64,000 bases of DNA, taken from positions 4,960,001 to 5,024,000 of the forward strand of contig JAYWIR010000001.1 of NCBI GenBank assembly GCA_036172245.1, in the 5' to 3' direction. The notes beneath the pieces were generated by a model. It saw only the letters and a program-made list of their open reading frames with translations. It had not been told where the DNA came from and did no database searches. Position 1 is the stretch's first letter, and every line of letters begins with the position of its first letter. Shown one piece after another: positions 24,279 to 54,189 of the stretch. The stretch comes from Raillietiella orientalis (taxonomy: Eukaryota). The position numbers and the translations under genes are program-made.

Positions 24279-27200
24279 AAACAGATCCACTCGCTTTGTT
24301 CTTCCTGAATAACTACTGTTGTTACGTTAGGCACTTTTTGTTGTTGTTTCCGTGAAACCACATTCCATCACAGTTCTTGGAGTTCTGGTGAGCTGTGGTT
24401 GCAGACCTCGGTTTGTTTCCCGCGAACACGAGACGTCCCTTGAAATGGCAATGCTTTTCCTTTTTCTTGCTCCTGGAGCTACGAACAGCCACCACCTTAG
24501 CAGCAGTACGCAACATCCCGAAAGCAGCTTTCGCAGTTCAGGCGCTGTCCGTTTCAGTGGCAAATTCCACCGCGGCCGATGGCACCTGCAACCAGCAGAC
24601 GGAGACTTTCACCTTCCTCACTTTCAGGCCCTCTTACCCGAACTTTCAGGTGTTTTTTGCCTTGGCTCCGGGAGGAAGGTGTCCTCCTGGCTTGGAAAGT
24701 GTCCTCCTTTTTCCGCTGCCATTTACTGCTCTACTGCTGAAAATGAGACTGCTCGCATCTCTTTAGGTGAAGAGCACCACTTCGCAGTCCGAAAGAGACA
24801 GTTGGCCGCCGTTTCGGTTTCTCTTTCGGGAATGAAGCTCCCTGCAGGCATCTGCGATGAAGAGAGTGGGAGCCGCGCCTGTGCTGGTGATGCACCACGA
24901 GCAAAAAGGTGGATGCCACGAGCTGCAAGATCTTGTTGGTGCACCAAGTGGCAGCTTTCACGTCACAGATAGCCTGGAAACATGGAAATTGCTGGGAGCA
25001 AGCTGGAAACAACCCAGGTGTTAAGCATGAATGAAGGCTCAGCGATCTCGAAGTTTTCAAGCTTCAGGGATTCTAAAGGGTGCTAGAAAATAGCTGAAGT
25101 CCCTTGCATCACGTGCACCACACAGATGAAGCAACTATCGAGCCAGGAAATCGCCGATACATTTGCTGAACGCGACGAGAAGAGTCGAGATGTTGGATCT
25201 CTCGTTCGGCTTTGCTTTCCTTCCAAACTCCCAAGCCGTTGGCGTGCCGAACGAAGGCCGGCGACTCCGGTCTTCGGAGGAAGAAAAAAAATCCCCCTCC
25301 CCTTTCCCCCCGCATCCTTTTTTTTCCACTCTCCTCATAGTACAATTCTCTAACCGCGGACAAAAGCTCCACGCAAAAGGCGGAAGTCGAAATTGGACCT
25401 CGTCGGGGAAACGGGAGCAGAAGGAACCACAAGAACTGGCGTTTCGCGAACCCCGGAGCCAGGGAGAGACGAGTGCAGCATCCACTCACGAGAGCGAGTT
25501 CGAGGGATGCGAAAAAAAGAGGAGAGTTGCCATTCGGATCGCCGATAGGAAATTTCGCGAAACGAAAGGGAAAGCGGGAGCGCAGCCGCGGAGGACGCCG
25601 CCGTTCCAGGAGATCGCGGATTTCCCGCACCATTCTCCGCATGCCGTCTGCTTGCAGCGATCAGCCTGATCGCTCGTTCCATGGGGCGACGAGGCGGATG
25701 CAGGAGCCATTCGAGCCATTCCATCAGGGGAAACCCAGCCTGCACCTTCGAGTAAACATGAGCAGCTCGTTACGGGAAGAACTGGGGAAACTGATCCTGT
25801 TTTGGTTCGGTTCCTTATTTAGAAAGATGGCCTAGAATGCGTGAATGAATTGGAACCGGGGAGTAGGAACTCCAGGTCAACGGTCGAGCACCCGAACAAC
25901 TCCGGTCATCCGCGTAATTCAGTGCAGGCAAGCGAGTCGATAGACGAGAGCGAAGACGAACGCGAGACGCGAGACACTGAAGCCACCTGAAGACGCGAGC
26001 ACTGGAACCACCAAATTTTCGGCAAAGACCTCCTCCTCCTTCCTCCTCTTCTTCCTTTTCCTCCTCCTCTTCTTCCTTCCTTTTCCTCCTCGTCCATCCT
26101 CTCCTCCTTTTCCTCCTCCTCGCTCCCTGACCGCCGTGTCGCGTGCGTCGGGGAAGAGCGACACGAGGAGCCGAGGGAACTCTGGGATAGGCTCCGCGAA
26201 GGGAAGGCGGTGGACCCGGGTGCAAGTCAACGGGGTCGTATTTCTCGCAGGTGCGCTCCAAGCTGCGGTGAGGAGGAGGGCGCGATAACTCCAGGCCCGC
26301 GCTTTGTCATCGGCTCGGATCGAATCTTCAGCCACCCCGGGGCCGCATCCGAAATGCTGACAAAGAGTGGGCTTAGGCGCTTCGAAAATGCCAGTTCTCT
26401 CTCCCCCTTGCGTGGACCGACTTCGTGAGGCTTGGACGTCTACGATGATTGATATTCCCCCAACGGGGAAGAGGCGGTGAGACTGCAGACCTCTTCCGTG
26501 GAGTTGAGATCCCTCGAGAGGCAGGGAGGAAAAGGGACCACGGACAAGAGATCCGAGCCTCGGGAAGTCTGCAAGGAAGAGGTCGACCTCGGACCGGCTG
26601 GAGGTAACAGCAGAGAGGGCGGTGTGCCCCCTCGCCCTCGAACCCTGAAGGAAGCTGGGGCGCGCTCAGGGAAAGCAAACAGAAAGATGACTTCCGGCCT
26701 CATTTTCCTTCCGATCGTCTCTTTCGTTTTGTGGGATACGAGTAATCTTATCGTGCGCGGGGTCCCTCTGACAGCAACAAGTCCGAAAATCGCCTTTGGG
26801 AGGAGTCGATGCGCTGCTACTCTCGGAAGAGGAAGGGTGCTTCGATGGTGAGTTCAAATTCAGCCTCCCCGTTCTCTGTTGCTCCCGATCAGGCGTCGCA
26901 ACTTTGTACTCTTCTGAAGCAGCCTCCCTGCAACTCCCGAGAGGCTCTTTTTTCTCCTGGCCACGAAGGATACCCCCTCATTCTTGAAGAGGGAGTCTCG
27001 AAAGGAAGAACAAATGGACAAGGGACGAGAAGGAATGCCATTCAAGACGTGAAAATGGAGAAGACAATGGAGGCAGCAGGAAGTCTCGGGAGCGACTGGT
27101 GATGCCGATTGTCCAGTCGGCGATGGCGTCAGAGACTTCCAGGACGACGGTGACGCTAACGAGAGCGAAAGCGACAACTGTGAGAACGTCAATATCGGTG

Positions 27201-29690
27201 AAAGCGGGGTTGATGTGATGATGCTGGCGCCAAAGGAGGCAGCAAGAAGCCCAAGGTGCGACCAGTGGCTCTGGGAAGGAAAGGCGGCGACGATGGGGAA
27301 TGGTGGTGCGACAAAAAACTGAATTCATCGCTTCCACGTCACCCTTCCGTGGACTCTTCCGTTGCGATGGAGACTTTTTTATTCGAACCGTTCTCCCTTC
27401 GTGTCTTCGCTGCCCCACATGCGTGAGGCCTCGCCCGGGGAATCGATTCTGTTCCGTCTTTTCTTCCCTGTTCCGACGGCTTGAACGCTGCCCGAGGCTT
27501 TTTGGCAGCGCTCCGCGAGGACGCGCGAGGCGTCCTTGCCGTCCACCAGCCCCCGCCCCCTCTGCACCTTGGAAGGCCGGTAGAGGAGGGGGCGCGCTCA
27601 CTGAGGGGTTCGCGAGAGCGGAAAACAGCGGCTCGGGGCGTCGGCTTTCCGCCGCTCTCCAGCATCCCTCCGAGCAGCATTCGCGGAGTGCGCACGCCAG
27701 CTCTCGCACCGGCACAATTAGTTGCGCAAACAGACACAGGCGATTCCCGTCCGCATCCTGGTGCAGGCGGACGCAGGGCGCGCGCTTCCTCCTCGCCAGC
27801 TCTTCCCGGTGAATTAATTTCCCCCTCCCCCTCCCTCCTTTCCGAAGGACGTTTGTTGAAACAAGGAGGTTGGTTTCCCTTGTGCAAACAACGGGGACGG
27901 GGTTCTCGGGGGGGAGGGGACACGTGGGCTCGCCGGGACTCGATGGTGATCTTCGAACCTCCAGAACACGGCGACGTGTTCCGTCGTACATTGGGGAAAC
28001 CGCCAATGAGCGTTGTGCGGTGGAGGGTGGAGGGGGTGGAAGAGAGGGCGGCTTTGTCCAAGTCAAAGCCTCTCCTCCGTGTAACCCTGCCTCCCGCAGC
28101 GGCCGCACGGGTCGGTTGCCCCGAGATCGCAAGACTTCTTTTTCTTTTGCAGGGACCCCTTTCCTCCTGTGCCCTGCTTCCACCTCCGGTCGCCGATCTG
28201 ACCGCAGTGAGGGAAGAGAGAAGGGTGCGGACCCCCCCCCCCCCCCTCTTCCCTACACACACAAACGTACACCAGCCGCCAGCTTTCCTGGCGGGAGACT
28301 ACCCGGGGAGCAGCGATGGGATGCGAAAAACAGACGGGTGTGCGGTGAGCAGCAGCAGCGCGCCGGGCGGGCGACGCGCGAACTGCGCCGGCGATAGCGA
28401 GTCCTTCCCGCGGGAAGAGCGGGGATCGCGGGTTCCCTGTCGGCCTTCTCCGGAAGCGAGGAGAGAGGGAAAAGAGGAAGAGGAAGGAGGAGAAGGAGGC
28501 TTTCCGTTTTCTCCGATCCTCTACTTCCGGGATTTTCATCCCGTCTCTGCCTCCCTCCCTCTTCCCCCGCTCTGCAGCAGCTGCGCGCGCCTCTCTCCAG
28601 GAGTTCTGCCTCCCTCGAGCGGCTCGCGGGAGAGGCGAAAGAGGCAGACCGGGTGGCCCAACAGCAGGTGCTCCGACGGGATGGTGTCCTCGTCGCGATC
28701 TGCCCTAGGCGCCGGCCTCCCTCTCCGACAGCAGCTCCATCCATCAGCAGTTGATCAGCTCTGCCGAAGAGGTGCGTCCGTCGGCCAGCCCTGCCGCTTC
28801 CTGCAGAGGTTCTGGTGGACGAACGATCGCTCGGGGGAATAGGTTTGGGTCCTTGCCGATGAAACAAGGGGAAGGGGAGGGGAGGTAACAGGATGAGTTG
28901 CCTGCGCAGGTCGAAGGGAAGACTCGGCAGCAGCGACGGCGTGGTAGCTAAGAAGGACAGGGAGATAACCCACCAAGCGAAAGGGAGGGAGGGAGGGGAG
29001 CCTTGCATTGGGTGCTCCGCCTAGAGTCGAGGGGCACGCGGCGGCAGAGAGTCCTCAAGACGCTTCCACCTACGTGCCCCTCAGGGGAAGACGAGGACGG
29101 CGCAAAAAAAAAGCGAGCGCGTTCCGTCACAGCTTTTTTTCTTCTCTTTCCTTCCCTTCCCTTCCCTAAGGGTAGGTCGTTCCGGACGACATCGGCGTTG
29201 AAGGATGAATGGACGGGGAGGTTGTTGTTGGGGAGAGCAGGCACGGGAATCGTGAGCGGAACGCGCGTGGAGGTCGAGGAGCCACGGTGGCACCGATGGT
29301 GGAGGACGTCGAAGCGCCGCGACCGTGCATCGACCGCCTCGAGGACTGCGAGGAGGGTTGCAGGGCGACGCCAGAAGCCGGAGGTGGTGGCATAGGCGAC
29401 GCCAACGGGATGAAGGAGACGATGATGGCGCCGAAGACGTGGCGAAAAGGAACGAAGGAGCCATAGGCGGGCCAAAGGTTGCGGTGGAGCCGGAAGGAAA
29501 GACGGGAAGAACACTGTTGTTCTTCGTGATGCTCGCAAAGCCTTCCGTCCGCCCCTGGAAGCGGGTCACCGTATTCTCCGATGACGCTCGCACCCGAAGT
29601 TCGCGTGGTGGTCTTTCCGCAGTGACCACCCGACTACTTCTGCCCCCATAAGGTGGCGCTGGCGGCAGTGGAAGGAAGGTGACTGGGCTG

Positions 29691-29752
29691 TGGCAACAAT
29701 GGAACGCCGGTATCCATCGATTGTGCCTTCCGGCAATTAATCATCGACGGTG
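29691..29752 (+). repeat. ~60-bp dispersed direct repeat (partner at 31157-31215)
   Basis: TGGCAACAATGGAACGCCGGTATCCATCGATTGTGCCTTCCGGCAATTAATCATCGACGG vs TGGCAACAATGGAATGTCGGCATCGATTGTGCTTTTCGGCAATTAAGCGTCGATGG. Confidence 0.8.
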
Positions 29753-31064
29753 CTGAAGGCGTGCCCACGGGATGCGTGCATTTCTCATGCACTGTGGAAG
29801 AGTTTCTCGCCCTGCCGTTCGCCGTGGAGACCTGTTGGGGTCCTACTCTCTCGAACCTCCGGAAAAAAAAATCCCGAAATGAATTTTCGTTCCCCCCCCC
29901 TCCTCCTCCTCTGCAAAATGCCCTGTTGCTTCCCTTTCGCGGCAAGAGAGACTCGTCGGGCGCGGGAACGCGCGTGTGTTTTCCTTTATTCCCACGGGAG
30001 AACAAGAGAGAAGACGCAAATCGCTGTCCGGGACAGGAGGAACCCACGTCTGGGAGCTGCGAAACAGCCTACTTCGCAAGTTTCACGGGGAGGTCGAGGA
30101 ACTTGCGGGAGGAGAGCATGGGAGCGCTTCGTGACGCGGCGTGGGTCCCGTCGCTACAGAGAAGCGCGGCGCCATCTTGAAGAGCGTCGTCGGTTCGACA
30201 GCCGCGCGCGACGCTCGCACGGGCTTCGCCCGACCGGCCTCCAGAGGCCTGCCGTAGGCGAGGATCCCCTGACCGACCCAGCGTGGGGACTGCATCCGGA
30301 TTGCGCCAGCCCGCGCCAGCCGGTAAGAAGTGACTCCGGCGCCGAGCGTGGTGCAACAGCGGCAACATCATTCATCTCATTCATCCAGGGAGTGCCACCG
30401 AGGTTGCCTCCGGGGCGTAGAGATCAAAGCCTGCGTGGAGGGTTTGTTTGTCCTTTGCTCTCTCCCGGTTTCGGGCTCGCGAAGCAGGGAAAGTAAATCC
30501 CCGAACTTTAAGCGAGGTGCCAGGGGGGACTCCGCGTGCGGCGAGGGGCGGGCCCCGTGTTCCCTGCTCGAGAGCGAACTCCCGCAGTGCCCTGGAGCGA
30601 GTCGTCGCTTTCAGAAAAACTTTGGGCGCCACTCAGCCACAAGTGGTGTTCTCCGCCTCGGTACTCCTGTTGCCCTGCGCCCCTGGACGTTGCTCGAGGG
30701 TGGCGGAAGCAGCTTCCCGGAAAAGAGAGGGAGGAACTCGCGGACTCTGTGGGAGCCAGGCTCACTTTTCCTCTGGAGCCCGCGAGCGACCTCGGAACGG
30801 GACCAAGGTCGCGAGTGACTAGTCGAGGGCGGATTGTGAGGGAAGACTTGTTCTCTGACAGGGTAGCGGGCGGCTCTTCCGCGTGGCCGGCAGACCAGCG
30901 GTGGACGAGCTCTCCTCTGGAGATGGAGACGGCAGAGAACCCACCACTATTCAAGCAGACGTCAGTGGCCTATGATGGCGGCTTTCGAACAAACGCTCTC
31001 CGATCAGAAGGCGCTACACTACGGAGGGTCTCATTACCAACCTCTCATTTTAGGGCACTGATGC

Positions 31065-31250
31065 TGTCAATGTCAATTAAACATGGAGGGTAATTAAACG
31101 GCGATAATCGATGCCCAAACTGTGGTAACAATCAAACATTAACGCTGACTGAGTAATGGCAACAATGGAATGTCGGCATCGATTGTGCTTTTCGGCAATT
31201 AAGCGTCGATGGCGATCGAATATTAATGGCTAATAAATGCCGATGATCAC
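31065..31250 (+). repeat. AT-richer degenerate minisatellite-like block (CAATTAA…TCGATG motifs) containing the partner of 29691-29752
   Basis: Recurrent CAATTAA/CAATCAA/TAATTAA and ATCGAT(G) words, plus the direct match to 29691-29752. Confidence 0.55.
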
Positions 31251-34200
31251 CAGAGAGGAGATGTGCATCAGCAATCCAAGACTGGGAATTCCTCGTCAGC
31301 CATCCATAATTGTTTGCGGGCTACTTATGAGAAATGGAGAGACTGATTGTAGGTTGCCATTGGGTGGGGTCCGATGATCCTCTGTTAGATGTGAACTGGC
31401 GGCCACTGAAAGAGCAGAGACAGGTCATTTGCGGTCCCTGGATGCTGCAGCCATCAGTCAGCCGCCAGCGATGCCGATCGCCGGATCGGCAAGCGGCCGT
31501 GAAGGACTCTGCGGTTCCGTGGCAACTCGTTGTGGGTCAGCAACCGGAAGCCATCGGTAGACAGCGGGCCAGATGCCCACCTTCGACAACCAGAGGACGC
31601 TTCCTCGCGGCCTTTCCCTGCCGGCAGCCTCCGAGGAAGTTGCCCGGTAGGCTTGCTGGGCACTCGGGGGCGCCTCAAGGATGGCTGCCGCTGCTCGTGA
31701 GATCCCGGCACGGTCGGGACAGCGTTCCTCGACCCCCTCTCCTTTTTCCCTTCCTCCCCTCCGCGAAACCGCGGGTGCTTTCGCTCGTGAGCCGATGCGC
31801 TGGGGCGTTCCCGCGGCGTCCTCCAGGATCGCATGCATGCGGGAGGGGGCGGGCGGTCTCTCTCGACGGCCTGAGGCCTTCATGGAACCCCCCCCCTCCC
31901 TTCTTCATTCGATTTGGCCCTTCTTTTTCCTCTTTTTTTTCTTCTCCCCTTGATCTTCCCCTCACGGATCCCTCCGAGCGGCCCCAAAGGGAGCAAACGA
32001 ACGGCCCGCTGGCCACCGGGAGCGAAAGTCAAGGGGCGAGGGGAGCGTGGCGGAGCCCACGCAGAGAAAAGAGGGAGGGCAGCGTGGGAGAGCGTCAGGT
32101 GGCTCCCCAGGATGCCCGCAGAAGGCTGACGGCGTGGAGCTCCTTCGCTCCGAAGTCCGCCTCGAGGTCTCTGGCAGGGGACGTCGAGGTCGTCGCTCCG
32201 GGAGCTCACGCGCGCACGCGAAGCTCCCCTACCAGCGACGTTCCCTCAACTTCCCCGGCGCTCTCGCTTTCCTTTGTCTCCCGGGAGGCTCCCGGCGTAT
32301 CCCCACGGAAGTTGGACGCGGGATCGGCGGCCTTTCGGGAGCCGGCGGCTGGCCCTCGGGGAAACGACCCGCCGCCATGCTCGCTGCCGCTCCGTGCGTG
32401 GCTCGGCAGGGGATCAGGGAAGGGGATGAAGCGGAGGGAGGGAGGGGTAGAGACCAGGTAAACGGCGATACGGCGGCGACCGAACCGTGTACGCGCAAGC
32501 GCCGCCGACGGCGGAGGGGGCGACGGCGGCCGTCGGCGTCGCCCCGAAAGAGGAGCTCTTCGCGGGAGCCGATCGGGGGCATCCCCCGCAGCCCCGTGTG
32601 GCACGACCCGAGGTCGCGAACCAGGAGATAGAGCAGCCTCCAGGAGAGCTCGCGGACAACGCAACTCCGGCGTTCCTTCCCTGTGGGCGGCTCTCATCGT
32701 CCTGTGGGATTGTGCCGAGACGAGAGGGGGGGAAAGGAGGATGAAGGGTGCGAGGGGGTTCGCATCCCTCAGGACGTCCCCTATAGGCAGGGTGATGATC
32801 CACTAGAGGCCCACGAGTGAGCGTGTGTGTTGGACGGGTCTTCGGACTAAGTAGCGAAATTCTCACTCGGCGGCGGCGGCTACTCTCGCTTTGGGCGGTC
32901 CCGTTGCACAGCGGCGCCTCTGGCGGCGGATCCGAAAAGCCTGTCCTCCGGGCTGGCTGGCTCTCCCCGCTCCGACAAGCGGGAGGGAGGAGGGGGGAAG
33001 AAACTGAAAAGGATCCTTGACCCTCCCTCGCAGGCTTGCTGCTCCGTCACCCCCACATACGAAACGGGTGGAACAAGGACCTCGAGACGAGTTCCTCGGC
33101 GACGCGGACCAGTGGTCACGTAGGCGTTCCTCACCAACCCTATTGCCCGGCTTCCGCGACACTTGTGCCGATCACAGAGTGCTGCGTCCGAACCCGCCCG
33201 GGGAGGGGCATGGGTCTTCCCTTGCGTGTCCGCTTCTTCCCAATCCCCGGCCCAGCTTCTCCTGGACGTCCGTCCGTCACAAACTTCGCCGGCAGTGCCC
33301 TCTTTCCCGGTCTTCTGGGCGACAAGACTGAGGTCATCTGAGGTCGGCGCTGTACGCTCCACTTCTGGGTCCTTGATGTTCACGGGGAGCGTTCGATGGC
33401 GCACGGCGTCCATCCTGGACTTCCCGTCGCGTCCTTTTCTGGGAAGCGCCGGGAAGAGAGGATGATCACTTCCGGAGAGATAGACAGAACCGTTTCCCAG
33501 ATGGATCCCCGGAACTGTGGGCGACATCGAGTGGGGGTAGAGGAGGGAAAAGCTTGATCCACTTTGTAGGGGACGTCTCTCACTTTCTCCCCTTCCCCCT
33601 TTTTGGAAGACGCGGTTTCCAGAAGCATGAGTTCTCCCCATAGCTTCCTGCTTTCCAGGTTCCGGCGGCTGGGACGTGCTTTCCCCTCCTCTAAGGACAT
33701 CTCGGACACCCTCTCAGTCCTCCCTTCTCCCGGATGGGTGATCCGCGGCGCTGGCAGTGCTCTGGCGCCGCCCCGATCTCTCCAATGCGCCCACGAAGCC
33801 GTCGCTCCTTGAGGAGGGAGTGTGGCAGTGATGCAGCGTCCCGCTGCGTGCGGAAGAACTGGCTGGGAGGCAAACGTGGGCCGACCGACGACCCTCAATA
33901 GGGATGTTGGGGCGCAAAAGGGAACCGAGTGAGCTCCAGCGCGTGCTCACCAGCAGCCCCTGCCATATGAGGCAGTCGCCGGTCTCTCTAGGGGGGGACG
34001 GGGTGAAAAGGGAGCAAACCTGAACGTGGGAAAGGGGTGGAAGTGCAGATGGGGTGAACGCGGGATTGAGATGAACACTAGACCGAAATGAATGGTGGAA
34101 TGGGAAGAGCGGGGGAGGGGAAATAGGGAAGAAAGCATGCATGCACTGGAGGGGGAGTAAAGTCTGTCCTCCGGAAGGGTGTAGGATAGCACAGAGAATG

Positions 34201-34649
34201 GGATGAACAAGCAGACAGGATAGACGGGAGCGGCTGAACGATGGAGTGAGGTGATAAAGGGGATAGAGAGAAATGGTGAACGAGGGATGGCTACCATCAA
34301 CAGGATGAAGTGAGCAGGGGCATAAGGCGAGCAAAGGTATGGGGTGTGCGGGTTGGGATGACACATAAGGGGATGGAAAGGGGAGGAGGACAAACGGGTG
34401 CCTCTCGTCGACCCCGTTTCCTGAGGACTTTCCCGAGATTCCTGATAAGCGAGAGGGGGAACGGGTCGGGAGAGCCGAGAGCGAGAGTCCCGGAAGTAAA
34501 GAAAGCTTCCGCATCACGGAAGGCGGGGAAGAAAGGGAAGAGGGATCTTCGCTGTTTCCGAACGAGGGTTCTCTGGGGCGGGAATTCTGGGAGGCTGTCG
34601 TTCGCTCCCGCAAGGCATTCTCTTGGCGCCCCAGGAAGGAGCAACGAGC

Positions 34650-35600
34650 GCTCCGAAGCCCTGGAGCGAGCGGGAGGGAAACCGGGAAAAGCAAAAGGAA
34701 GGGAGAGCCATCTTGGAGACGTGCGAAGGGGTGCGCCCTGCCGGGTGACCCCGCGGCTGGGATGTGCGCGAGGGAAGTGAAAGCGCGAGAAAGCGGAGGA
34801 CGCAAGAGTCGCCCCGCCCACGCTCCCTCTGGCCTGAATACGGCCGCGATGGTGGCGGCATCCAGGCGGCATCCATCCTCCGGGCGCCTCTGCAGCGCGC
34901 GCGATTCCGAAACCGTGTTTGCTTCCTCCTCCCCCTTCCTCCCCTGCACATATCCTCCTCTATCTTCACTCCCTCCTTCCCGCGAGCTCCCGCTTGTTCC
35001 CCGTCTCCGTGACGAAAGCGAGGCGCGACCCACCCATCGGGCTTGCCGCTCCGCTCGGTTGAGGGTAGGACTGGGGCCTCTGGGATGCGCACCCTACCCC
35101 CAGGCGTTTTCCCCTTTTTTTTTTCTTCTTCACCCGTTGCTTCCTGGAAGATTGGGACGCACAGCTTCCAGAAGACCTCAGACGAGGTAGTGGCGCCTCC
35201 CGGGAGGAGGATGGTTCAGAGATGTTGCAAGACTTTCGCGTCTCATTCCGTGGAAAGGAGTTGCCGCTGCCCCTCCATGGAAGACCGTCCGACGAAAGGG
35301 AGACCTCCCACTCGGGAAACTCTTGGTCTTCCCTCTCCTTCTCGCGTCCCCGTTGCGGTGTGGAGTCCAGACCAATCCTCTCCCCCCCTTCCCCATTCCA
35401 GAACGCCGCGAGACCTGCGCGAGCCTGCAGTACGGAAGATCCCTCACGCGCCACCTTTCTTCCCGGGCGGCCGCAGCGTCCACGCCACCAGCCGGATCTG
35501 GAAGATTGCCGTGGGCCGCGGAGGCCCCGGAATCCCTCAACAAGAGATGGGTACCCTCTCCTTGGCGTGGTGAGCGGAGAACGGGAAGGTCGAGGGGGCG
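34650..35600 (+). repeat. Diverged GC-rich long interspersed repeat family C (partner ~61390-62560)
   Basis: Collinear shared words: GCGGAGGACGCAAG/GCGGAGGGCAACG, CGCGCGATTCC/CGCGCGATCCC, AGACCTCAGACGAGGTAGT/AGACGTCTCATAGACCCGGTAGT, CAAGACTTTCGC/AAAGATTTCGC, ATGGAAGACCGTCCG/ATGGAACACCTTCCG, TGGGTACCCTC/TGGATACCTC. Confidence 0.5.
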
Positions 35601-35894
35601 TACATCGGACATGCAAATGTGGAACCACCACAGGAGCTCAGCGGCCGTAACAGGAGACTCCTCTCATGCTGGAGGCAGGGCAGAGGCTGTCGATCCCTGC
35701 TCCGATGCTGTCTCCACGGCACCCCGCTCGAGCCGCAGGGGGCTCTTTCCACAAATCTTTCCTTCGGGGGCAGCAACGGAAACATCACCACGGCTTCCAA
35801 GGCAGCACCCTTGGTGGCTCGCGCATAAGCGTTTCCGGAACAGTGGACTCTTCCCCTTCCTTCCTCCCCTATTCCTCTCCCTCTTCGATCCGCG

Positions 35895-36090
35895 AGCAAG
35901 GAGATGAGGTAATTTGTGGCATGGGCTGTGCAAAGGGTGTGAGGTGAGCGGAAGCATGCGATGGGTAAGGAGATGGGATCAGCAGAGGCAGGGGTATGCG
36001 AGGAAATGATGTGAGTAGAAGCACAGGATGAAGAAGGACATGGGGCATGCAAGGAGGTGAGGTTAGAGGCATGGGGAGTGCAAGGAGATG
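35895..36090 (+). repeat. Degenerate ~33-bp purine-rich minisatellite (5-6 units)
   Basis: Units approximate GCAAGGAGATGAGGTGAGCAGAGGCATGGGGTAT. A related, more decayed GA-rich tract lies at ~34000-34390. Confidence 0.7.
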
Positions 36091-45249: not shown

Positions 45250-46973
45250 TGGGGGAGGGAGGGGGGCTCGCAAAGTTCTTTGGCAATGTCCACGCCACCT
45301 GAGGAAGTGTGCAACCCTTCAATGCAGAGTGTGACCTCGGAGAGACCACCCTATCAATTCAGGAAGGCTATGTAGGCAAGGGTCCGTCCCTCTTACTCTT
45401 GGGAGAAAGCTCCGACGGAAACCACTTCCTCACTTTCTCAAGAGGGACCACCCAGAAAAGAACCGCTCTTCGTTTCCTCCTCGGAAGAGAACCCCGAAGG
45501 GACGTCTCTAAATTTCTCCAAAGGGCGCACTTCTTGCTCTCTGGAGAAGCAACCACCCGAGAGGGGTAACAACCAGCTCCATAATACGGCTCCCTTTTCA
45601 CAACCGAAGGGGAACCCCGAACAACTCGGATTTTTGGAAGAACCTCGGAGGGTCAACCTCCAATCCCGGTCAGTCAACGGGGGGCCATCCGGCTTCCACC
45701 AGTGCCACCGCGAACGGTAGTGTCTGGTTGCAGCGAACCGTTCTCATGTGGACGAGGATCCAGGAGCCACGCGCGGAACTGACGTTTCTGTACGTGCGCA
45801 ACAACAACTGCACGCTGCGGGAGATCCTGGAAGATCCCGTGAAGAGTGCGTGGGCAAGCGGAACCTCCCTCTCCGCAGCGCTGCCCTCCCTTAGGGAGCA
45901 CCTGGGCAGCAGCCTTACGACTGGATGGGAGGTTACTGTGGAAATATCCGGAAGGAGAAAAGGACTGGGCGAGTGGACGACAGGCCAGCTCACCATCGCT
46001 ACCACCCTGATTGCTCGACCTCGTGAACTTTTGCGCTGGGGCATGCTACTGGGTATTCCGGAGGAAGATCTGCAGTGGACCCCGGTGCTCATGAACACCC
46101 GCACCCTCTTTTTAAAGTGGCAGGAGTCGGCGTTGATACTGCTGCACTGGGGGCTTCCGTGCAACGCCTGCCGACATCATTGGACACGGAACAAGGGGGT
46201 GGATCCGAACTGTGCAAGGTGCAAGGAGAGGGAATCCCTCCTGTACCTCCTAGTGGACTGTGTTGCCCTCCAGCCTCTTTAGGGACGCTTGGCCACGACC
46301 CTTGGAACCCCCGTCTGCAACGCCAGAAACGTTTGAAAGCGCCTCTTCCTGAGCGACGCCCTCACGCCGGCCGCATCCCCAGCAACACTGAGCTGCCTGC
46401 GCGGGATCGTGGCTGCATGGAGCAATGCCAGAGGAGGCTAGGACGACAGGAACGCCATCCACTCTGCTGTCCTCTTCATGGGAATAGAGTCAAGATGGTC
46501 CCATCTGGAAGCCTCGAAACAGTAACTTGCCGGCATCCGTACAAGGATGCAGAGGAGACCTCCAGCACACAGTGATCCTTTCCCGAACACCCCTCATTTT
46601 TCTGATTGTATGTTTTTGTTTTATTTTTTTCTTTCTGTTTGTCTCCCTTTCCCCTGTGCTGCCCAGGTGAATCCTGCTGGACTGCGTGCCAGTTCTCAGC
46701 AGGTTCCTTCTCGTAGTTATGAGTAACGTGGAGGGATCAAACGTCCTGCCAAAGACGTTTATTTTTATAAATAAACGCCCCGGAGTGACCGGGTGTCAAT
46801 CAGTGCTGCACCCAAAGCCCATAGGCCAACCAGCATCATCCTGAGGGGGAAGAAGGACTCGAAACCCACGACGCACTCATTTCTCGGATTCGATGATCCC
46901 CTGGGCGGGATTCGAACCCGCGACGTTCTGTGCCACGCGCGGAGATAGCAGCTACACGGCCACTAACGCAAGC
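45250..46973 (-). mobile_element. tRNA-derived SINE family B copy, split by a LINE insertion
   Basis: Head at 46801-46973 with perfect B box (GGATTCGAACC at 46908-46918) and tRNA-like CTCCGCGCGTGGCACAGAACGTCGCGGGTTCGAATCCCGC. The body resumes at 45709 and runs to the G-rich 3' end at ~45250, matching the other copies. Confidence 0.8.
45710..46800 (+). mobile_element. 5'-truncated L1/Tx1-like non-LTR retrotransposon (ORF2 C-terminus with zf-RVT CCHC domain plus 3'UTR)
   Basis: ORF 45728-46282 ends KWQESALILLHWGLPCNACRHHWTRNKGVDPNCARCKERESLLYLLVDC, the typical L1-clade zf-RVT pattern. It is followed by a T-rich 3'UTR, AATAAA at 46770 and a terminal hairpin. Flanked by degenerate duplication CAGTGCCACC / CAGTGCTGCACC. 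Confidence 0.75.
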
Positions 46974-49900
46974 ATCTTGAAGTTTGTTCAACCTTTCAGA
47001 CTGTAGCTGGCATCGATTAGCAGTTCACTGATGCCCTCCTACAACGCAGGTCTTGTCAAGCCAATATCAAGGTGTAATCTCCTCAGGGGCTTCAAATACG
47101 TGGGCAAAACCAAAGAGCCACGCAATTTTCTAAGACCCATAGAATCGCCAGTGCACAGAATGCTTGGCCATTTTTGCTGCCATCGAGCGAGGGTATTGGT
47201 GTAACTTCCGGAATTCCCCTACCCCACTTAATGAGAGCTTCTCCAGCAGCCACGCTGACATTCACATCTTCCTCGCAAATTACTGCAAGGGAAAGCTATG
47301 CGCGTTGAAAAGATGCACGAGAAGATAAGGAGGAAATCAATCGTCTAACACAGAAACGAATTCGTGCCCTGTGTTGGTCAGCATCCAGTTCCTTTTTAAG
47401 GGATACCACGTGCGGACCACCACTTCTCACGAGTGGCTCCATTGAACTTGCTGCTGGTGCGAACCGCACCTATTAGAAGCGGAGCTGACCGCGTGTGCAG
47501 GAGATGCGCACTGTGCCAGGGATCTCTTCAGACCGCCTGCAACCACTGCAGGTTCGGCTCACGAACCGTCGCTCATGGTCCATGCTGAGCGGTCAGCGAG
47601 CAAACTGAGAAGCATCTCCACAGAACGGTGAGAGCTGGCTGCTCATAATCGACCAGCCATCTGGAAAAATTCCAGCCTCTTGACGGGATTGGCGTTGCAG
47701 GGCGGGGGACGAGTGATCCCACGTGACCGCCACCTGCCCCTCAGAGAGCGGTTCCTGGCTCCTATGAGACTCCAGAAAGAGGAAAGAATAAATACTAGAG
47801 TCTGGCCAGCACTTGACCAGTACAAGGGAGTACACGCCCTCTGAGCGAGCCATCGTGGTAGATTGGCCCCCGGAGTCCCTGGAGCTTGGGAAACGGCATC
47901 AGCCAACGATGAGGTCCAACAGAAACTCGAAAGCAAAGGGATGCGAGCCCGAGTGCATCAAAGAGATGATATGCAGTAGCACACAACTCTCCCGGGAGAT
48001 CCTCTGGAACCGGATGGGTTGAGAGACGAATGTAAGCAACTCACAAACAGAAGAATCCTGATTTTCTGCATTCACAAGATTATGGAAACCGTGAAAATCG
48101 TGGATAATTCTCTTGTCATCCTACAAACCCTCCCCAAAATTTTTTCTTCTTCAAACATCAACGCTTTGTTGATGAAAAACAAAACAAAGAGGGAAAATAC
48201 CAAAAGGCAGAAGAATAAAGGCTGCAAGACTTGACCACCCAAGCAAGAAACTCCTATGGCTGAGGATGCCCTCCCATTGACCAAAGTTTGAATTATGGCG
48301 TCTTTATCTTGATTTGGCGTATCTTTATGAAGATTATCGGGAAAGAATTCGAGTTCTTTGTCTTCGTGGAAATATTGCGAATGGGTGTCGAATCAGCGAC
48401 CACTTTTTTTTTTTTTTGTTTGTCTTTGGTTTTCATGGTGCGTTAGAAAATAAAGAGAACGCCGAAACTAATTATTAACTTCGTTTTGATTTGGCACTGG
48501 TGTTCTTTGGTCAGCGCCCTTGGCACTCTTTCAAAACAGACGTGGACTTCGGTTTCGAAGAATACTCCTTGTTCTTGTGTGATACCGGGAGTTCACTAAA
48601 GGAACAGAAGTGATTAGGCTTGCGTGCTGTACTCGGAGGAACACTTCGATTTTTCCTTCCTTGTGTTCCTGCAGGCCGTAGGTTGGTCGCGGCCTAACTG
48701 TCTTCCAGGCAGCATTGCGACGGAACCACTTTGGCTGAGTTCCGCCGGTCAGCTGAGCCCGTTGACTGCAAATCTTGCAGCAAGCCCAAAGAAGAGCGCT
48801 TCGATTTGCTTCTTCAGGCACGACAAAGCTGTTCTCATGTCCCATCTTTTTCATAATCCGGATTTGCGCTTGCTCTCTGCCTGTCGTTTCTCCTTGACTC
48901 TTTGTGACCGCTGACGTCTCTCCTCGCTCCAGCTTGAATCCGGTTTCCAGATTGCCACGCAAGTCTCTGGCTGATGGACTGACGGGGTCCTGACAGTTTG
49001 CGCTTTCAGAGACCTTGGACTGATGCTTTTCCGAATCTTTTTCCGAAAATTCTTTTGCCTTTTCTCTTGAATTAGCAGAGCTTGCGTGTGGGAGAAAACC
49101 GCGGCGCTCCTATGATGTTTCTTCTGGAGAGCTTTCAGGAAACTTTAAAAAGCATTCACCACAAAGAGCGACGTAAATGTGACTCCCACGTTAGCAGGAA
49201 CGGAAAAATACGCATGGTCGCGCAGTTTTCAACCACTTCTACCACCGCTTTAGGATCCACACGCGCAACACACTTCGTTCGAGGGTATTCGCAGGGATAT
49301 GTGGGGGTGGAACGACGATGGCTTTATCCAAGTAACCGAAGAACTTATTTAGTCCCTGTCTTCATGCTCTTTCGAACGAATGCCGAAAAGGATCGGCCGA
49401 GCACGCAAAGAGCACGAGGACTCGGAAACCGATGACACCAGAAGCGCTTCAAGCGCTTCACATTCTGTGTTGAGTTCCTCTGAGTGAAGAGTAATGGATG
49501 GAGTCCCAGCAAGCACTCCTGCTCTTCGGATTCTACGGACTTGATCTTTGCTTGGGAGCATGAAGATATTTCAAAATGAATGGCAGAACAGCATCTCTTC
49601 AGAAACACTTGGAGAGTGGAGAAATTTTTTTCTCGGCGTTGTTCTTTCTCCAGATGATGACTTCTGGCTCGCCTCAGAGATGCGTTCGTGGGAAAAATTC
49701 TTGCAGTCCCCGAAGTCGGTGACTGCAAGAATTTTCCTGATGCTCGTTGTATCGTCCATCGTGTCGTCCAGTTCCAGACTTTAAAGGACGGGATGAAGAC
49801 AGCTTGTTGGAAAGGAAATTTTCTTGAATATAGAATTCCAATTCCACAGCAGTTCTGGTGATGCTTCTGTGCTCACTCTAATGCCCACATCCCTGAAACA

Positions 49901-50510
49901 TCGCTGGAAGGGAAAAATGTGTTGCTCCCTGTGATAGGGAGATTTCAACTTTTGTGGGACATTTTCAGAAGATGCAAATTTTTCATGTCCACAAGACGTC
50001 ACACACACATACACATGCACGGAAAAAAAAAAAATCTCAAAGTCGTTTCTGGCTTGTAAAAAACCAACTAAGAAAGTCGTTTGCAAGTTGGCAGCTAAGA
50101 ATGCTAATACTTGCAAATCGTCAGCGTATTAGCATCCAACATCTTGATTAGGGATGAGGAAGCGTCTTTGAAAAGGAGCATGTTTGGTCGTTTACTGAAG
50201 GGGAAATCATGTTCCCCGAACAACATCACTTAATTCGAAAGCATCATCTTCCGCACAGGCTGCAAAGTCAACCTAGCAGATTAGAACAAAGGTTGTCACG
50301 GCTAAGGGCTTACCTTGAGCAACAAACTGTAAAACACGCTATAGAATGTTTTAGCTTTAATGCTTTTAAAATAACGTTTCTTCCTGCTACCTTATCAATT
50401 AATGCAGTACACCGACCCCTCCCTAATCTATCCACCAACCCTTTTATCCCACCAAGCTGCATCTTCGAACTCCCTACCATCCAATCTTTCATTATCTTAA
50501 TCCCTATTAA

Positions 50511-51284
50511 CCCTTTGAGTGCCATGGACGCATCTATGCGCCTGGCAAATGTTTTTACCGTATACCCGGCGACATAAGTTAACACCATCAGTGTTTGAGA
50601 CGGACACATACACTCACGTTCTCATAATTCCGTTAGCAACGTCAGTAAACAAAACGTCGGCTAACGATTCTCGTTTTTTTCTCGGGGTCGTATTCAATTT
50701 ATCATAGTTGTCCTTTTTATCTTTGTGGTATCCTAAAAATTTCGAGTAATTTTGAAGAAATTATAAATAAGTAAGCAATTACAATAGTAACTTTAATCAG
50801 CAGTTCATAGAGTCAATCGGTGTGCAATAAAGATGGCATATGGTGCATGTAATCAAATTAAAAGGAAGACTGTGGAAATCTCGCCATCGATAAAAAAGGA
50901 GTTGAAGCACAGTGTGCTATACAGTGTGCCTAGAGAAGTGCAAAAGTGCATTTCGGTTTCTTTTTTGGTTTAGTTCAGGAATGTTATTCCTATTAATGTT
51001 ATTCCTGCCGCTTCTCAAGTGCTTGATCGCGTGACATCGAGTGAAAGCGTGATCAACATTACCTTTTGTCAAAGTAACCCCTTGGATTTCACCCTTTTCA
51101 TTGATTACCATATGTAACTTGAAACCAAAAAACCAGCCATAAGAGCTCTTGCTTAATTTTGCAATTCCAGCAAAAACTTCCAAACAGACGCGAAGAAACA
51201 TTCCGTCCACAGAGGTCGGAGCTGCGACCCGCGTGCCGTCGACACACAGAACGTTTCAATCCGACGAGCTCCGCGCCCAAAGGG
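50511..51284. mobile_element. Non-autonomous piggyBac-like DNA transposon (774 bp)
   Basis: TTAA at 50507-50510 and 51285-51288 (target-site duplication). Termini CCCTTTGAGTGC / (rc) CCCTTTGGGCGC match at 10/12. Subterminal near-palindrome GGACGCATCTATGCGCC. Precise excision restores the ND5 frame. Confidence 0.8.
51052..51177 (-). mobile_element. Bacterial IS982-family transposase fragment, Wolbachia/Rickettsiales type (endosymbiont-derived DNA)
   Basis: Uninterrupted 42 codons VFAGIAKLSKSSYGWFFGFKLHMVINEKGEIQGVTLTKGNVD contain the IS982 hallmark GWFxGFKLH...xGNVD, with AT-rich codon usage. Similarity stops abruptly on both sides. Confidence 0.85.
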
Positions 51285-54189
51285 TTAATTCCGCAATTGC
51301 TCCTCAAAGCTTCACGATCAACCCAATCAGTTTACTCAACATCCAACCAATAACCATACTTACAGCTGTCATGTACTTTTCCGCAATAGATGATGCGAAC
51401 CTCTCGACCTCTTCTACAACTGTTCCTCCACCGGATTCCACCGAAAGCATTCAAAATTATTAACAAAATGCAACGTGCGATTCCCACTCCTACATCTCCA
51501 CCTCTTTTCCTCAACTCTTAGTACCAATTACGTCAGCATCCGATATCTGTAAGCAGCTCTAAACACCATCCCCACCATTGCCATTACCTCGACAGGGCCA
51601 CCTCGATCTGAGCATTCCACCAAATAACCTTTCCTATAACAACAGCCTCTTAAGAAGGGGAATCCCGCCAGTCCCGTAACACTGAACATTATAAATCACT
51701 CTCGGAAACGTAAATACCACTTCTGCCCATGCCGATACCACGCGAGTTGTGCCTCCCATCACACCCATGAATCGCCAATCCCCGGCACAAGAGCTCCAGT
51801 GATTTAAATACAGCATGAATCAATAAATCATGGTAAATTGCTAATCATTGCATCTTCCCATGTTGCAGCCGAAAGAACAATGGCAGCTGCGGTTTAGTTG
51901 GCTTGGCGATCGAAAAGACATCGCACAAATTGAAAATTACTGAGGCGCTCATCAAAATAAGACCGTGGAAGGAAGGGTTGCACCGAAGGTCTTAGAAGAA
52001 TAGGTTTTCCAAGAAAGAAATCCTCCTCGATGATGGCTCTCTTTAAGCAGAGCAACGGCAGAATCGATGTGAATCGTGGAGACTGAACGATCAAATATTA
52101 ATGAAATGCAATCCTCATGAAGTACTGCTCACTTAGCAATGGATTCGTTTTTATCTCGCTCAAGGAATCACGGAGCACACAGCCCTTTCTAAGAATGCTG
52201 ATCCACTACATAGATTCTAATTGATGGATCTAAGTTGCTCTCGTTAGCAATGTAGACGGCACAGCATTAGGGTGCTTCTAGTAGGAATAAGATGCGAAGA
52301 AAATGGGACCGTCTTTCAGAGGTTCCCCGGAGAAATGGGGATGGACATGAAGTCGCCGGTTCGTACCCACTTCTGCTCCCTTCTTTTCGTTCAGTAGAAG
52401 AAAATGGGAAAAGGGGGCTTTGCCACCCGAAGTTTTCGACTGCTGTCCTTGAAATAACCTCCTGTCGATTCCGCGGACTCAAATTCATTTTCCGTGTTTG
52501 ACAAAGAAATGAATTTCGTCTTTCCTCCGTCCTCGACCGGTTTCTCTGTTTGCACAACACTTTCTCTTCTGGGGCAGCTGGCTCTCCCATCCAGCGAAAT
52601 CGACTCTGCCGTTCGCTTGAGCTCGGGATTCCACGGTGTTGAATATGAGGAAACAAGAATTGTGGTCTCCTTCTAGAGAGCTCTTCTCGCTCCACGCTTC
52701 CCATTTTGGGAGTCTTTCATGGTCGTCGGGAACCTTCAACGGGAGGGGGGAGGAGGGAACGAAGAAAGCGGAGAGAACACCACGTCTCTCCCCATCTCTC
52801 GATCACGTCGGAGCTGTTTGTTTGAACCGGCCATGCTTCTTTACGAGTATAAACAGGAAATTGCGCAGAGGAAAGGGAGAAGAAATTTTCCGTTTCGAAA
52901 TAACCGTTTCTGAACTCCGCGCTGTCCATTGCATGCGCTTTTGGACGCTGATGGGATTTCTCCCTCCGTGCTAATGAAGGAAATCATTTTCTCGTGCCTC
53001 GAGAAAGAGACACGATACTGGAGCACAGATTCGAATTGCCGTAAATCACCTGACCTGGGCTGCGTTCTGCTCGAATCGAGTTGAGCACACTCCTTATCGA
53101 AACACTCCGTTCCCTACGAGCCCAGTGGACATGGTGGGCAACCCATGAGTCCTTTCTTGAAACAAAGGAAAGCTCACCGGACTAAAAGAAAACAAAACAA
53201 AACAAAAAAGAAAGAACTTTTTCCTCCCCTTTTTCTACTCTTCTTGCATTCCAGTGGAATGCAGCTTCTCAGCTCTCATGTGTTGATGGCGCCCGCCGAC
53301 GACGGAGACTGTCCGAGGACCAGTTTAGTTTCATTTTAGAAGGCTTCTATCTTCTTTCAGCCCGTTTAGAGGGCCATTCTCTTTAGCTTGAGTAACTGAA
53401 GCGCTCTCAAGTGTTGAGACCGGTTGCGTGAGGTATGGTTCTGTGAGCAATCATATGAGCACACCTGCTCCCTCTACCCGAAAGGCGTTCTGCAGGAAGT
53501 TGCGGAAGAGGAGGCCGTACCTCGCCCGCGTGCTAAACAAACGAAATTCGTGTCTTCGGCCGGCTTTTTCCGGAAACGTGCAATCCAATGTTCCGGGGCA
53601 GTCGAATCGAGTGGATGCTGACAGTTCCATTTCCTCCCGATACAGAAAACTTCCTCAGCGGCCTTGTAAGCATTGCCTGCAGCAATGGAACAGAAATATA
53701 GCCACCTGGAAGATGTTCCTGAATAACTATGAAGGCGAGGGTCCAAGCAACTCACTTCAAAAAGCACAATTACATTGCCTTACACGACGTGCAGTGCTTG
53801 CAGGAAGAAGGCATGAGGCTGTACCCAGCTGCCACATACATCTTCCGAATTTCTTCTTTCACAGCACATGTTCTAACCTAGAATTCAAATGCACTTCAGT
53901 AGCACGCGATTCTCCGGGTTTCCATCCAAAGGGATCCATTCCTTGCTTGTAATTTGCTTTCATAGGTTTACAGGAAGACTTGGGACCTGTTTACCGGTTG
54001 GACTGTCTGTATTTTAATAAACAGTTGGCTTCAACATCACTAAGAGACAAATCAAACTCGATGGTTTGTTCTCTGGAAGGTTCTCTGTTCCAAATAGAAC
54101 CCAGTTCTGTACTAAACATTTCCACTAATGAAGCAATAAGTAGACACACTCCAAGTGAACCGCGCGCGAGAGGGGAGGGGGATACATTT

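Follow-up and report, generated by a model that had tools for sequence, protein, structure and literature searches.

A decayed mitochondrial ND5 gene

The minus strand of the window, by which we mean the whole stretch of 64,000 nucleotides analysed here, carries a fragment of a mitochondrial ND5 gene in two parts, with the 5' part at 51289..51990 and the 3' part, corresponding to the C-terminus of the protein, at 50310..50510. Three reading frames (ORFs 51991..51689, 51803..51528 and 51456..51289) make up the 5' part, so that at least two frameshifts are needed to read through it. When the first of these ORFs, translated from the minus strand with genetic code table 5, was compared with the chains of the PDB by phmmer, all 14 hits at E ≤ 10 were chains of the ND5/NuoL type, the best match being 8b9z_L (E 0.001, chain residues 268-332). 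The second ORF gave a single PDB hit, which is again an ND5 chain (residues 365-429, E 0.13). The two matches are collinear and place demonstrable ND5 similarity at 51934-51731 and 51716-51534; control ORFs taken from nearby matched unrelated proteins at E values of 0.44-1.4. Identity to the PDB ND5 chains is about 30% in the conserved core, as counted by hand from the alignments, and a fast-evolving host mitogenome may account for this strong divergence. The ND5 pieces gave no match in Pfam, a search of a 5.8-billion-protein collection with the 91-aa and 100-aa ORFs found nothing, and the ND5 piece had no hit at E ≤ 0.001 in a representative library of 1.84 billion proteins. No ND5 similarity is seen upstream of about position 51990, and the ND5 part is surrounded by sequence without mitochondrial features.

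The codons of the fragment point to the same origin. An AGG at 51635 and an AGA at 51548 align with the serines of the YSK and YS motifs of ND5, and five TGA codons lie in frame. AGR codons at conserved serine positions together with in-frame TGA fit the invertebrate mitochondrial code, and the initial annotation of this DNA, which had recognised an ND5 pseudogene written in that code, is thus supported by the two ordered ND5 matches as well as by these codons. The extent given there (50310..51846) has to be revised at one end, because ORF 51991..51689 matches ND5/NuoL chains and the similarity therefore reaches about 51934-51990; the assignment to ND5 itself stands.

The 168 and 201 nucleotides that adjoin the interrupting element on its two sides have no detectable similarity to ND5. 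We infer that they belong to the gene from their order, their expected length, a common GC skew and the open frame that they form. The plus strand of 50310..50510 has a G content of 0.08 and a C content of 0.30, and the same strong skew is present on the other side of the element. This 3' part ends with a TAA at 50310-50312 and is open for 66 codons under table 5. Removing the element and one copy of TTAA in silico gives an open frame of 122 codons, under table 5 only, with the terminal stop as its sole stop compared to 14 and four stops in the other two frames; the rejoined frame was open in 13 of 20000 composition shuffles. The earlier statement that deletion of the element restores one open frame is therefore borne out.

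A 774-bp element between duplicated TTAA copies

The ND5 fragment is interrupted by an element of 774 bp (50511..51284), flanked by a left copy of TTAA at 50507..50510 and a right copy at 51285..51288, as had been proposed. Its inverted ends are 13 bp long (50511-50523 and 51272-51284), and when the left end, CCCTTTGAGTGCC, is set against the reverse-complemented right end, CCCTTTGGGCGCG, 10 of the 13 positions pair. Counted with the TTAA and one further base, the inverted repeat measures 17 nt and is 88% complementary. The 25-mer at the left end, allowing up to three mismatches, found a match in none of 100 shuffles of the window, in which the element itself is present as a single copy. No transposase of the piggyBac type is encoded in the 14 internal ORFs of the element, the only transposase domain being a fragment of an IS982 transposase that is described below, and a Pfam search with 259 ORFs of the window likewise recovered no domain besides that fragment and no piggyBac transposase. 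Since the element lacks a transposase, its piggyBac-type label derives solely from the ends. Judged by sequence features, the duplicated TTAA and the short CCC...GGG inverted ends suggest membership of the piggyBac superfamily, whose DDD transposase was not seen in the window. The element as a whole had no match among phage records, and its ends had none in metagenome contigs.

A known family offers a close parallel. According to the accessible part of its description, npiggy1_Mm of the mouse lemur duplicates TTAA, has 13-bp inverted ends, lacks a transposase and measures a few hundred bp, and its ends open with the same seven bases as those of the 774-bp element (PMC2997546); the initial annotation was thus right to describe CCC-starting ends of the piggyBac kind. 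In contrast to the element described here, of which one copy is seen and 46% is bacterial DNA, npiggy1_Mm is a high-copy family with a known autonomous partner.

In the public run X1, 0.05 of the sampled window words were present, and its contigs are scattered pieces, none of them crossing a junction of the locus; no RNA data set containing these words was listed. Contigs from this run match 50507-50556 with three differences and 51244-51289 with five differences, beyond which they are unlike the window. In both of these end-matching contigs the alignment includes the whole TTAA but breaks off past it, and on the inner side it is lost after about 41-46 bp of element sequence. On sequence grounds, this pattern may point to a family of elements with common ends.

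Two Wolbachia fragments in the interior of the element

When 60 Wolbachia genomes were searched with the 774-bp element, matches were confined to element positions 313-554 and 539-670. The first of these stretches (fragment 1, 50823..51050, plus strand), which had been overlooked previously, is the frameshifted beginning of a gene for a type I secretion permease/ATPase of the PrtD type and comprises about 49 bp of upstream sequence and about the first 60 codons, with a GTG start at 50872. It is 79-85% identical to Wolbachia DNA, and 59 of the 60 genomes match the element, nearly all of them at this fragment; the corresponding Wolbachia ORF matches TIGR01842 (E 4.2e-197). Its alignment contains 11 gap columns, as opposed to none among the Wolbachia sequences, with indels that shift the frame, and 16 of 181 sites that are invariant in Wolbachia have changed. 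A contig of 151 bases from X1, which may be the source sample, is identical to 50897-51047, including the changes specific to the window. The fragment was also considered as a non-coding RNA; this candidate was rejected, its consensus fold having become moot when the piece proved to be the 5' end of a protein-coding gene.

The second fragment (51049..51180, minus strand) is an internal piece of an IS982-family transposase of about 43 codons, covering part of the DDE core and matching PF13612 (E 2.6e-16). An IS982 piece had previously been placed at 51052-51177, and our analysis confirms it with DNA homology that spans 51049-51179/80. Homology to IS982 ends sharply at 51049 and 51180, with no IS ends, so that the piece falls short of the transposase of about 290 aa and is a fragment of an insertion sequence, not a mobile unit. 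Against 16 Wolbachia loci its DNA identity is 78.7-88.6%, and 93.8% over 81 bp, while the search of the 60 Wolbachia genomes gave identities of up to 90%. A comparison with bacterial genomes, which the initial annotation had proposed, identifies Wolbachia as the closest source: the encoded protein is 80-96% identical to the 16 Wolbachia loci versus 48-71% to 15 loci from other bacteria, and no plasmid-borne IS982 copy exceeds 68%. Judged from sequence, its nearest proteins are those of Wolbachia. Moreover, 42 residues agree with the consensus of seven relatives, six of them of Wolbachia type and one from the Midichloriaceae. The piece has no indel, and only one of 76 Wolbachia-invariant sites is changed.

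A side-by-side comparison of the window with both sets of loci, those of the secretion gene and those of IS982, locates the switch from fragment 1 to fragment 2 at ATCAACA (51052..51058), a 7-bp microhomology that is present in both Wolbachia source sequences. The source loci are not adjacent in the Wolbachia assemblies: at least about 245 kb separates them in a genome assembled as one contig (G001), and three others (G003-G005) have them on different contigs. The two fragments make up 358 bp, or 46% of the element. On either side, the remaining element sequence at 50511-50822 (312 bp) and 51181-51284 (104 bp) matches none of the 60 Wolbachia genomes, and a search of positions 1-60000 of the window turned up no further Wolbachia-like DNA. 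Taken together, these alignments argue for a nuclear Wolbachia insertion that is decayed and, in the assembly, lies on one molecule between stretches of non-bacterial DNA. The unequal decay of the two fragments (16 of 181 as opposed to one of 76 invariant sites) fits a single patching event less well, unless the secretion gene of the donor was divergent.

Surroundings of the locus

There are no tRNA genes between 48 and 54 kb and no tandem repeats, and a scan for promoters and terminators gave results at chance level. A search with Rfam returned nothing relevant at the locus, its one match being to a viral family at chance level (E 0.85), and no match at all over the whole window.

Interpretation and alternative readings

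We consider it likely, with a probability of about 0.8, that the locus is a three-layer genomic fossil in nuclear DNA, in which an ND5 fragment encloses a TTAA-bounded element that in turn encloses two Wolbachia fragments. The three origins named by the initial annotation, that is, an invertebrate mitochondrial ND5, a TTAA-duplicating element and an IS982 of Wolbachia type, are all supported by the sequence evidence. Its making can be described in three steps. A piece of mitochondrial DNA holding approximately the C-terminal 55% of ND5 entered a chromosome and gained at least two frameshifts afterwards. An element of 774 bp with piggyBac-type ends and no transposase inserted into a TTAA within the C-terminal part of ND5, duplicating the TTAA; its mobilisation would have depended on a transposase acting in trans. 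The third step concerns 358 bp of the interior, which derive from two unlinked pieces of the Wolbachia chromosome, joined head to head at the 7-bp microhomology. Such a junction is the mark of end-joining repair, by which fragments of broken bacterial DNA are fitted into a nuclear double-strand break. Each of these three types of insertion is common, and none appears to be functional here; the nested locus most likely has no function, and it is not a new system, being put together from well-known kinds of insertion.

The order in which the bacterial DNA and the element arrived is less certain. Given that the structure is real, we lean slightly towards an order in which a copy of the element began by taking up the Wolbachia patch, as filler when a break or an internal deletion in that copy was repaired, and the cargo-bearing element then transposed into the ND5 fragment. 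End joining at chance breaks is a commonly assumed route of short bacterial fragments into nuclear DNA. The reverse order, in which an element without cargo inserted into ND5 and the Wolbachia mosaic was patched into this one copy later, so that the bacterial DNA was never mobilised, is a distinctly less probable but serious competitor. The microhomology at the junction fits patching in place equally well, and the X1 contigs that share the ends of the element cease to resemble this copy after about 41-46 bp of element sequence; other family members may therefore have different interiors. Against patching in place stands the fact that the only Wolbachia-like DNA in 60 kb lies within an element of 774 bp, which is a short stretch for a random break to hit. 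A further reading, which we regard as tentative and rather doubtful, places the element in an amplified piggyBac-type family with endosymbiont cargo; a host transposon would then have taken up Wolbachia DNA and would be dispersing copies of it within the host genome.

Three other explanations bear on whether the layers are what they seem. An assembly artefact, in which reads from live Wolbachia and from mitochondria were misjoined to nuclear sequence, is very improbable. No X1 contig spans any of the junctions, as such an artefact would allow; the bacterial part, however, is no more than 358 bp long, combines two unlinked loci of which one carries frameshifting indels, and is bracketed within the element by sequence unmatched in any of the 60 Wolbachia genomes. 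Frameshifts also mark the ND5 part, around which no mitochondrial features are seen, and the 151-base contig from X1, possibly the source sample, reproduces 50897-51047 exactly. The initial annotation had argued from the TTAA-bounded wrapper that the bacterial piece is a genuine nuclear integration and not contamination, which is a reasonable argument and is strengthened by the mutated two-locus mosaic and the non-Wolbachia flanks inside the element. We give equally little credence to the idea that the ND5-like stretch resembles ND5 by chance or represents a Wolbachia nuoL that arrived in the same transfer and decayed, even though the matches are weak (E 0.001 and 0.13), bacterial NuoL/Nqo12 chains occur among the 14 hits and Wolbachia DNA is close by. 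The best mitochondrial ND5 scores 22.4 bits, compared to 14-14.9 bits for Wolbachia nuoL (17.6 bits for a stretch containing stops). At the DNA level nothing outside the element matches Wolbachia, and the AGR codons at conserved serines, the five in-frame TGA codons and a frame that is open under the mitochondrial code only all speak for ND5, as do the unrelated hits of the control ORFs.

With the family named from its ends and no transposase at hand, the TTAA and inverted-end signature might instead be a matter of chance or belong to a TA-duplicating element of the Tc1/mariner type; by our own reasoning, a TA duplication with ends shifted outwards by one base would produce an identical empty site. 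This reading is improbable as well, given that both end-matching X1 contigs align across the whole TTAA, that the left-end 25-mer is not matched in the shuffled windows, and that 13-bp CCC...GGG ends directly at TTAA resemble those of the published piggyBac family, so far as its description was accessible (PMC2997546).

Relation to known insertions and significance

Pack-MULEs, Helitrons and internally deleted elements with filler DNA carry foreign fragments between intact transposon ends, in many cases more than one, from unlinked sources and joined by microhomology. The cargo of these elements consists of host gene fragments, whereas the cargo here is endosymbiont DNA, and to our knowledge piggyBac elements are not noted for capturing cargo. 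As in other numts, a partial and frameshifted mitochondrial gene with its mitochondrial codon usage is kept in nuclear DNA; unlike in a plain numt, the ND5 fragment is interrupted by a later transposon and is very divergent from the PDB ND5 chains. Nuclear Wolbachia insertions, similarly to the fragments described here, are short pseudogenised pieces in host chromosomes, with mobile-element genes among the commonest to be transferred. In a survey of termites and cockroaches, as far as its accessible text goes, Wolbachia is the main donor and transposase domains, including PF01609, are among the recurrent transfers (10.1101/2025.03.16.643567), and most transferred genes are described, in the portion seen of another source, as neutrally evolving fossils (PMC5541319). 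The locus differs from the usual nuclear Wolbachia insertions in that 358 bp form a mosaic of two pieces lying entirely inside a TTAA-bounded host transposon, an arrangement of which a literature search at the level of titles and abstracts found no description.

A mutated bacterial mosaic inside a eukaryotic transposon, itself set in a dead mitochondrial gene, is not easily dismissed as symbiont contamination, and it therefore points to a past or present association of the host lineage with Wolbachia. If the cargo was not mobilised, the locus is ordinary genome archaeology. If other copies of the element were to hold the same cargo, host transposons would be shown to acquire endosymbiont DNA and distribute it, a way for bacterial DNA to multiply and disperse after its lateral transfer; mobilised cargo of this kind would bear on the duplication of laterally transferred sequences in arthropod genomes.

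Mitochondrial ND5 fragment and its interruption

The three layers proposed in the initial annotation, a mitochondrial ND5 fragment, a TTAA-bounded element and Wolbachia DNA, are all real. For an ORF on the minus strand (51991..51689, 100 aa, table 5, the invertebrate mitochondrial code), 14 PDB matches are obtained at E<=10, and every one of the 14 is an ND5, NuoL or Nqo12 chain. The best match is 8b9z_L (E 0.001, 22.4 bits), which we take to be from Drosophila complex I, the PDB search giving the molecule name alone; query residues 20-87 align with chain residues 268-332 and take in the ...ST.SQL... and H-A-x-F-K motifs. Another minus-strand ORF in a different frame (51803..51528, 91 aa) has a single match, to ND5 chain 7zm7_5 (E 0.13; query 30-90 on chain residues 365-429), in an alignment that contains the PF..G.YSK motif. 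Because control ORFs nearby match unrelated proteins at E 0.44-1.4, or have no match, an E value of 0.13 means little by itself; the weight of the 7zm7_5 match lies in its ND5 identity and expected location, and the order and spacing of both matches are correct. Moreover, AGG (51635) and AGA (51548) fall at the Ser of YSK and the Ser of the next YS, both opposite Ser in the aligned ND5 chain, and five in-frame TGA codons are present (51847, 51761, 51698, 51453 and 51306). In the standard and bacterial codes AGG and AGA specify Arg and TGA is a stop; AGR at Ser positions with in-frame TGA is the invertebrate mitochondrial code. The proposed mitochondrial origin is borne out by these ordered matches and codons. 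The fragment is longer than first described, however, since ND5 similarity begins at about 51990, 145 bp past the annotated end at 51846. Upstream of this point no ND5 resemblance is seen, and no tRNA was found near the fragment.

Wolbachia nuoL was considered as a source of the ND5-like stretch and rejected, with scores of 14-14.9 bits in five Wolbachia genomes (17.6 for a stop-containing stretch); there is no DNA-level Wolbachia match outside the element. One of these genomes (G001:C1:760007-760180) carries, besides its normal nuoL, a short segment resembling nuoL; its frame is interrupted by three TAA stops, and it may be a pseudogene fragment. No piece of the ND5 sequence matches a Pfam family, and two word-indexed protein searches and a full representative-library search returned no ND5 relatives. 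The fragment has therefore diverged strongly from all ND5 sequences that these searches covered, reflecting either its own decay or a fast-evolving host mitogenome.

No ND5 similarity is detectable in the flanks that adjoin the element (168 nt on its right, 201 nt on its left), which is unsurprising because ND5 C-termini are poorly conserved. Three observations nevertheless connect both flanks with the ND5 sequence. Strong GC skew on the + strand (-0.35 to -0.82) is seen in 50410-50509 and 51310-51809, is broken by the element, and fades to the left of 50310. By our own arithmetic, placing chain residue 268 at 51934 in a 577-residue ND5 with 778 inserted bases predicts an end at about 50230, near the actual TAA at 50310-50312. 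In addition, in-silico removal of the element and one TTAA fuses 56 and 66 codons in one frame with a terminal stop only, as had been claimed; the other two frames contain 14 and 4 stops, and the rejoined frame is open in only 13 of 20000 composition-preserving shuffles.

The TTAA-bounded element

The 774-bp element reported between duplicated TTAA sites is present as described. On the + strand, TTAA at 50507-50510 is followed by CCCTTTGAGTGCC, and TTAA at 51285-51288 is preceded by CGCGCCCAAAGGG. Between the two element ends, 10 of the 13 terminal positions are complementary, and the inverted repeat including TTAA and one extra base (17 nt, 88% complementary) is the longest inverted pair within 50300-51500. 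A 25-base left-end pattern, allowing <=3 mismatches, matches only itself in the window (0/100 shuffles matched), and blastn with the whole element finds no second copy in the window and no other stretch >18 bp. Among 14 internal ORFs there is no transposase domain except the IS982 fragment. Comparison can be made with npiggy1_Mm, described in the published account as a non-autonomous piggyBac family with TTAA duplication and 13-bp inverted ends (PMC2997546); the first seven bases of its inverted ends, as given there, are identical to those of the element, and both duplicate TTAA.

X1 is the only public sequencing run with words in common with the locus (share 0.05); it is possibly the window's source sample, so that support from it is not necessarily independent. 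When X1 contigs were placed on 49500-52500, one matched 50507-50556 with 3 differences and another matched 51244-51289 with 5 differences, each with unlike sequence beyond both sides. In both, similarity begins at TTAA and is gone about 41-46 bp into the element. From these alignments, we read the two contigs as other family members having the same ends and TTAA targets and different interiors. A 151-base X1 contig is identical to 50897-51047; none of the X1 contigs placed on 49500-52500 crosses a junction. Several unrelated X1 contigs pile up on A-rich, low-complexity sequence at 50000-50040 (bin depth 25.9), which is repeat noise and not locus coverage.

Wolbachia-derived cargo

The bacterial content comprises the IS982 piece identified initially and a second piece that had been overlooked, so that the Wolbachia layer is both larger and richer in information than proposed; together they occupy 358 of the 774 bp. 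Of 60 Wolbachia genomes, 59 match the element, solely at element positions 313-554 and 539-670. The flanking arms (312 bp left, 104 bp right) match none of the 60, and GC content is 61% in the right arm versus 35-40% in the cargo. Within the left arm, AT-rich sequence at 50768-50821 (24-28% GC) aligns with a 282-base X1 contig (54 bases, 8 differences) and with no Wolbachia genome examined; this segment may be repeated elsewhere.

The IS982 piece (51049-51180, minus strand) is matched by Pfam PF13612 (E 2.6e-16). Among species-representative genomes, 31 loci contain a relative, and the Wolbachia-type assignment stands: protein identity is 80-96% at 16 Wolbachia loci versus 48-71% at the other 15, which belong to Rhodobacteraceae, Paracoccaceae, Ruegeria, Rickettsia and others. 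Matches in 229 plasmid records reach at most 68% identity. In a large protein collection, where 93 of 102 candidates have E<=0.001, the top match (95%) carries the label Rhodnius prolixus in UniRef, and louse-Wolbachia IS982 transposases belong to its 90% cluster. Other named matches are mostly Wolbachia, the remainder being entries labelled Glossina and Trichonephila, two Midichloria-type alphaproteobacteria and two unclassified bacteria. A DNA search against Wolbachia genomes, as the initial annotation had suggested, gives homology over 51049-51179 at 78.7-88.6% (93.8% over 81 bp; <=90% in the 60-genome comparison) that ends abruptly on both sides. The piece has no indel, and its translation of 42 residues is identical to the consensus of seven IS982 relatives, six of Wolbachia type and one from Midichloriaceae. 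It is an internal gene fragment, not an insertion sequence.

The second piece, at 50823-51050 (+ strand; to 51064 in some genomes), is 79-83% identical to five Wolbachia genomes, with a top identity of 85% across the 60. Its counterpart is the upstream region and first ~60 codons of a 565-aa Wolbachia ORF that matches TIGR01842 (type I secretion permease/ATPase, PrtD type; E 4.2e-197, 656 bits, cutoff 510). Against four Wolbachia sequences with no gap columns, the window copy shows 11; it is 83.9-87.1% identical to them, whereas they are 87.4-98.7% identical among themselves; it is therefore a pseudogene fragment. One Wolbachia comparison locus, L035, has an Rfam match to WsnRNA46 (Wolbachia sRNA 46) at 3058-3234 on the minus strand (67.3 bits, gathering score 65.3), upstream of tsaD and with no relation to the window.

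Both source loci lie at least ~245 kb apart in the single-contig genome G001 and on separate contigs in three further Wolbachia genomes (G003-G005). In the window they are head to head, with the changeover at ATCAACA (51052-51058), a motif present in both source sequences, which we interpret as a junction formed by microhomology end joining. The secretion-gene piece has changed at 16 of 181 Wolbachia-invariant sites, with 4 deleted and 4 inserted columns, versus 1 of 76 sites and no indel in the IS982 piece, a count biased by the use of best matches as the 13 comparison sequences. Unequal ages of the pieces could account for this, as could a donor lineage with a divergent secretion gene.

In the window from 1 to 60000 there is no further Wolbachia-like DNA. 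Among 259 window ORFs the IS982 fragment carries the only Pfam domain, and the window has no Rfam matches. Use of AGR for Ser, together with cargo from Wolbachia, suggests an arthropod or nematode host. In a 10-kb block at 26000-36000 (59-65% GC), both strands contain long frames without stops (<=471 aa), none with a Pfam domain; the block looks like GC-rich, low-complexity non-coding DNA. A 256-aa open frame at 45512-46279 (+) has a C-terminus resembling, by eye, the cysteine-rich tail of retrotransposon reverse transcriptase; it has no Pfam match at E<=1e-4.

Origin and order of events

Judged from the sequence, live-symbiont contamination and a chimeric assembly are both unlikely: the bacterial stretch is short and mutated, it combines loci that are unlinked in Wolbachia, and within the transposon it has non-bacterial sequence on either side. 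We prefer an order in which Wolbachia DNA would have been captured by the element before transposition into the ND5 fragment, because the sole Wolbachia DNA in 60 kb sits inside the 774-bp element. Insertion of Wolbachia DNA in place, into this single element copy, is a serious rival, and the different interiors that X1 contigs suggest for other family members speak in its favor.

Nuclear copies of mitochondrial and of Wolbachia fragments are common, as are non-autonomous piggyBac elements. Wolbachia transfers are reported in ~20-33% of sequenced arthropod genomes (PMC4299567; PMC3798261). Across 45 termite and 2 cockroach genomes, one survey identifies Wolbachia as the principal donor and reports transposase genes among the transfers that recur, most of which are pseudogenised (10.1101/2025.03.16.643567). 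Full-text literature searches listed no description of Wolbachia DNA as cargo of a TTAA-bounded element. The locus thus adds one more case to familiar types of insertion, and it raises the testable possibility that DNA of an endosymbiont was mobilised by a host transposon.
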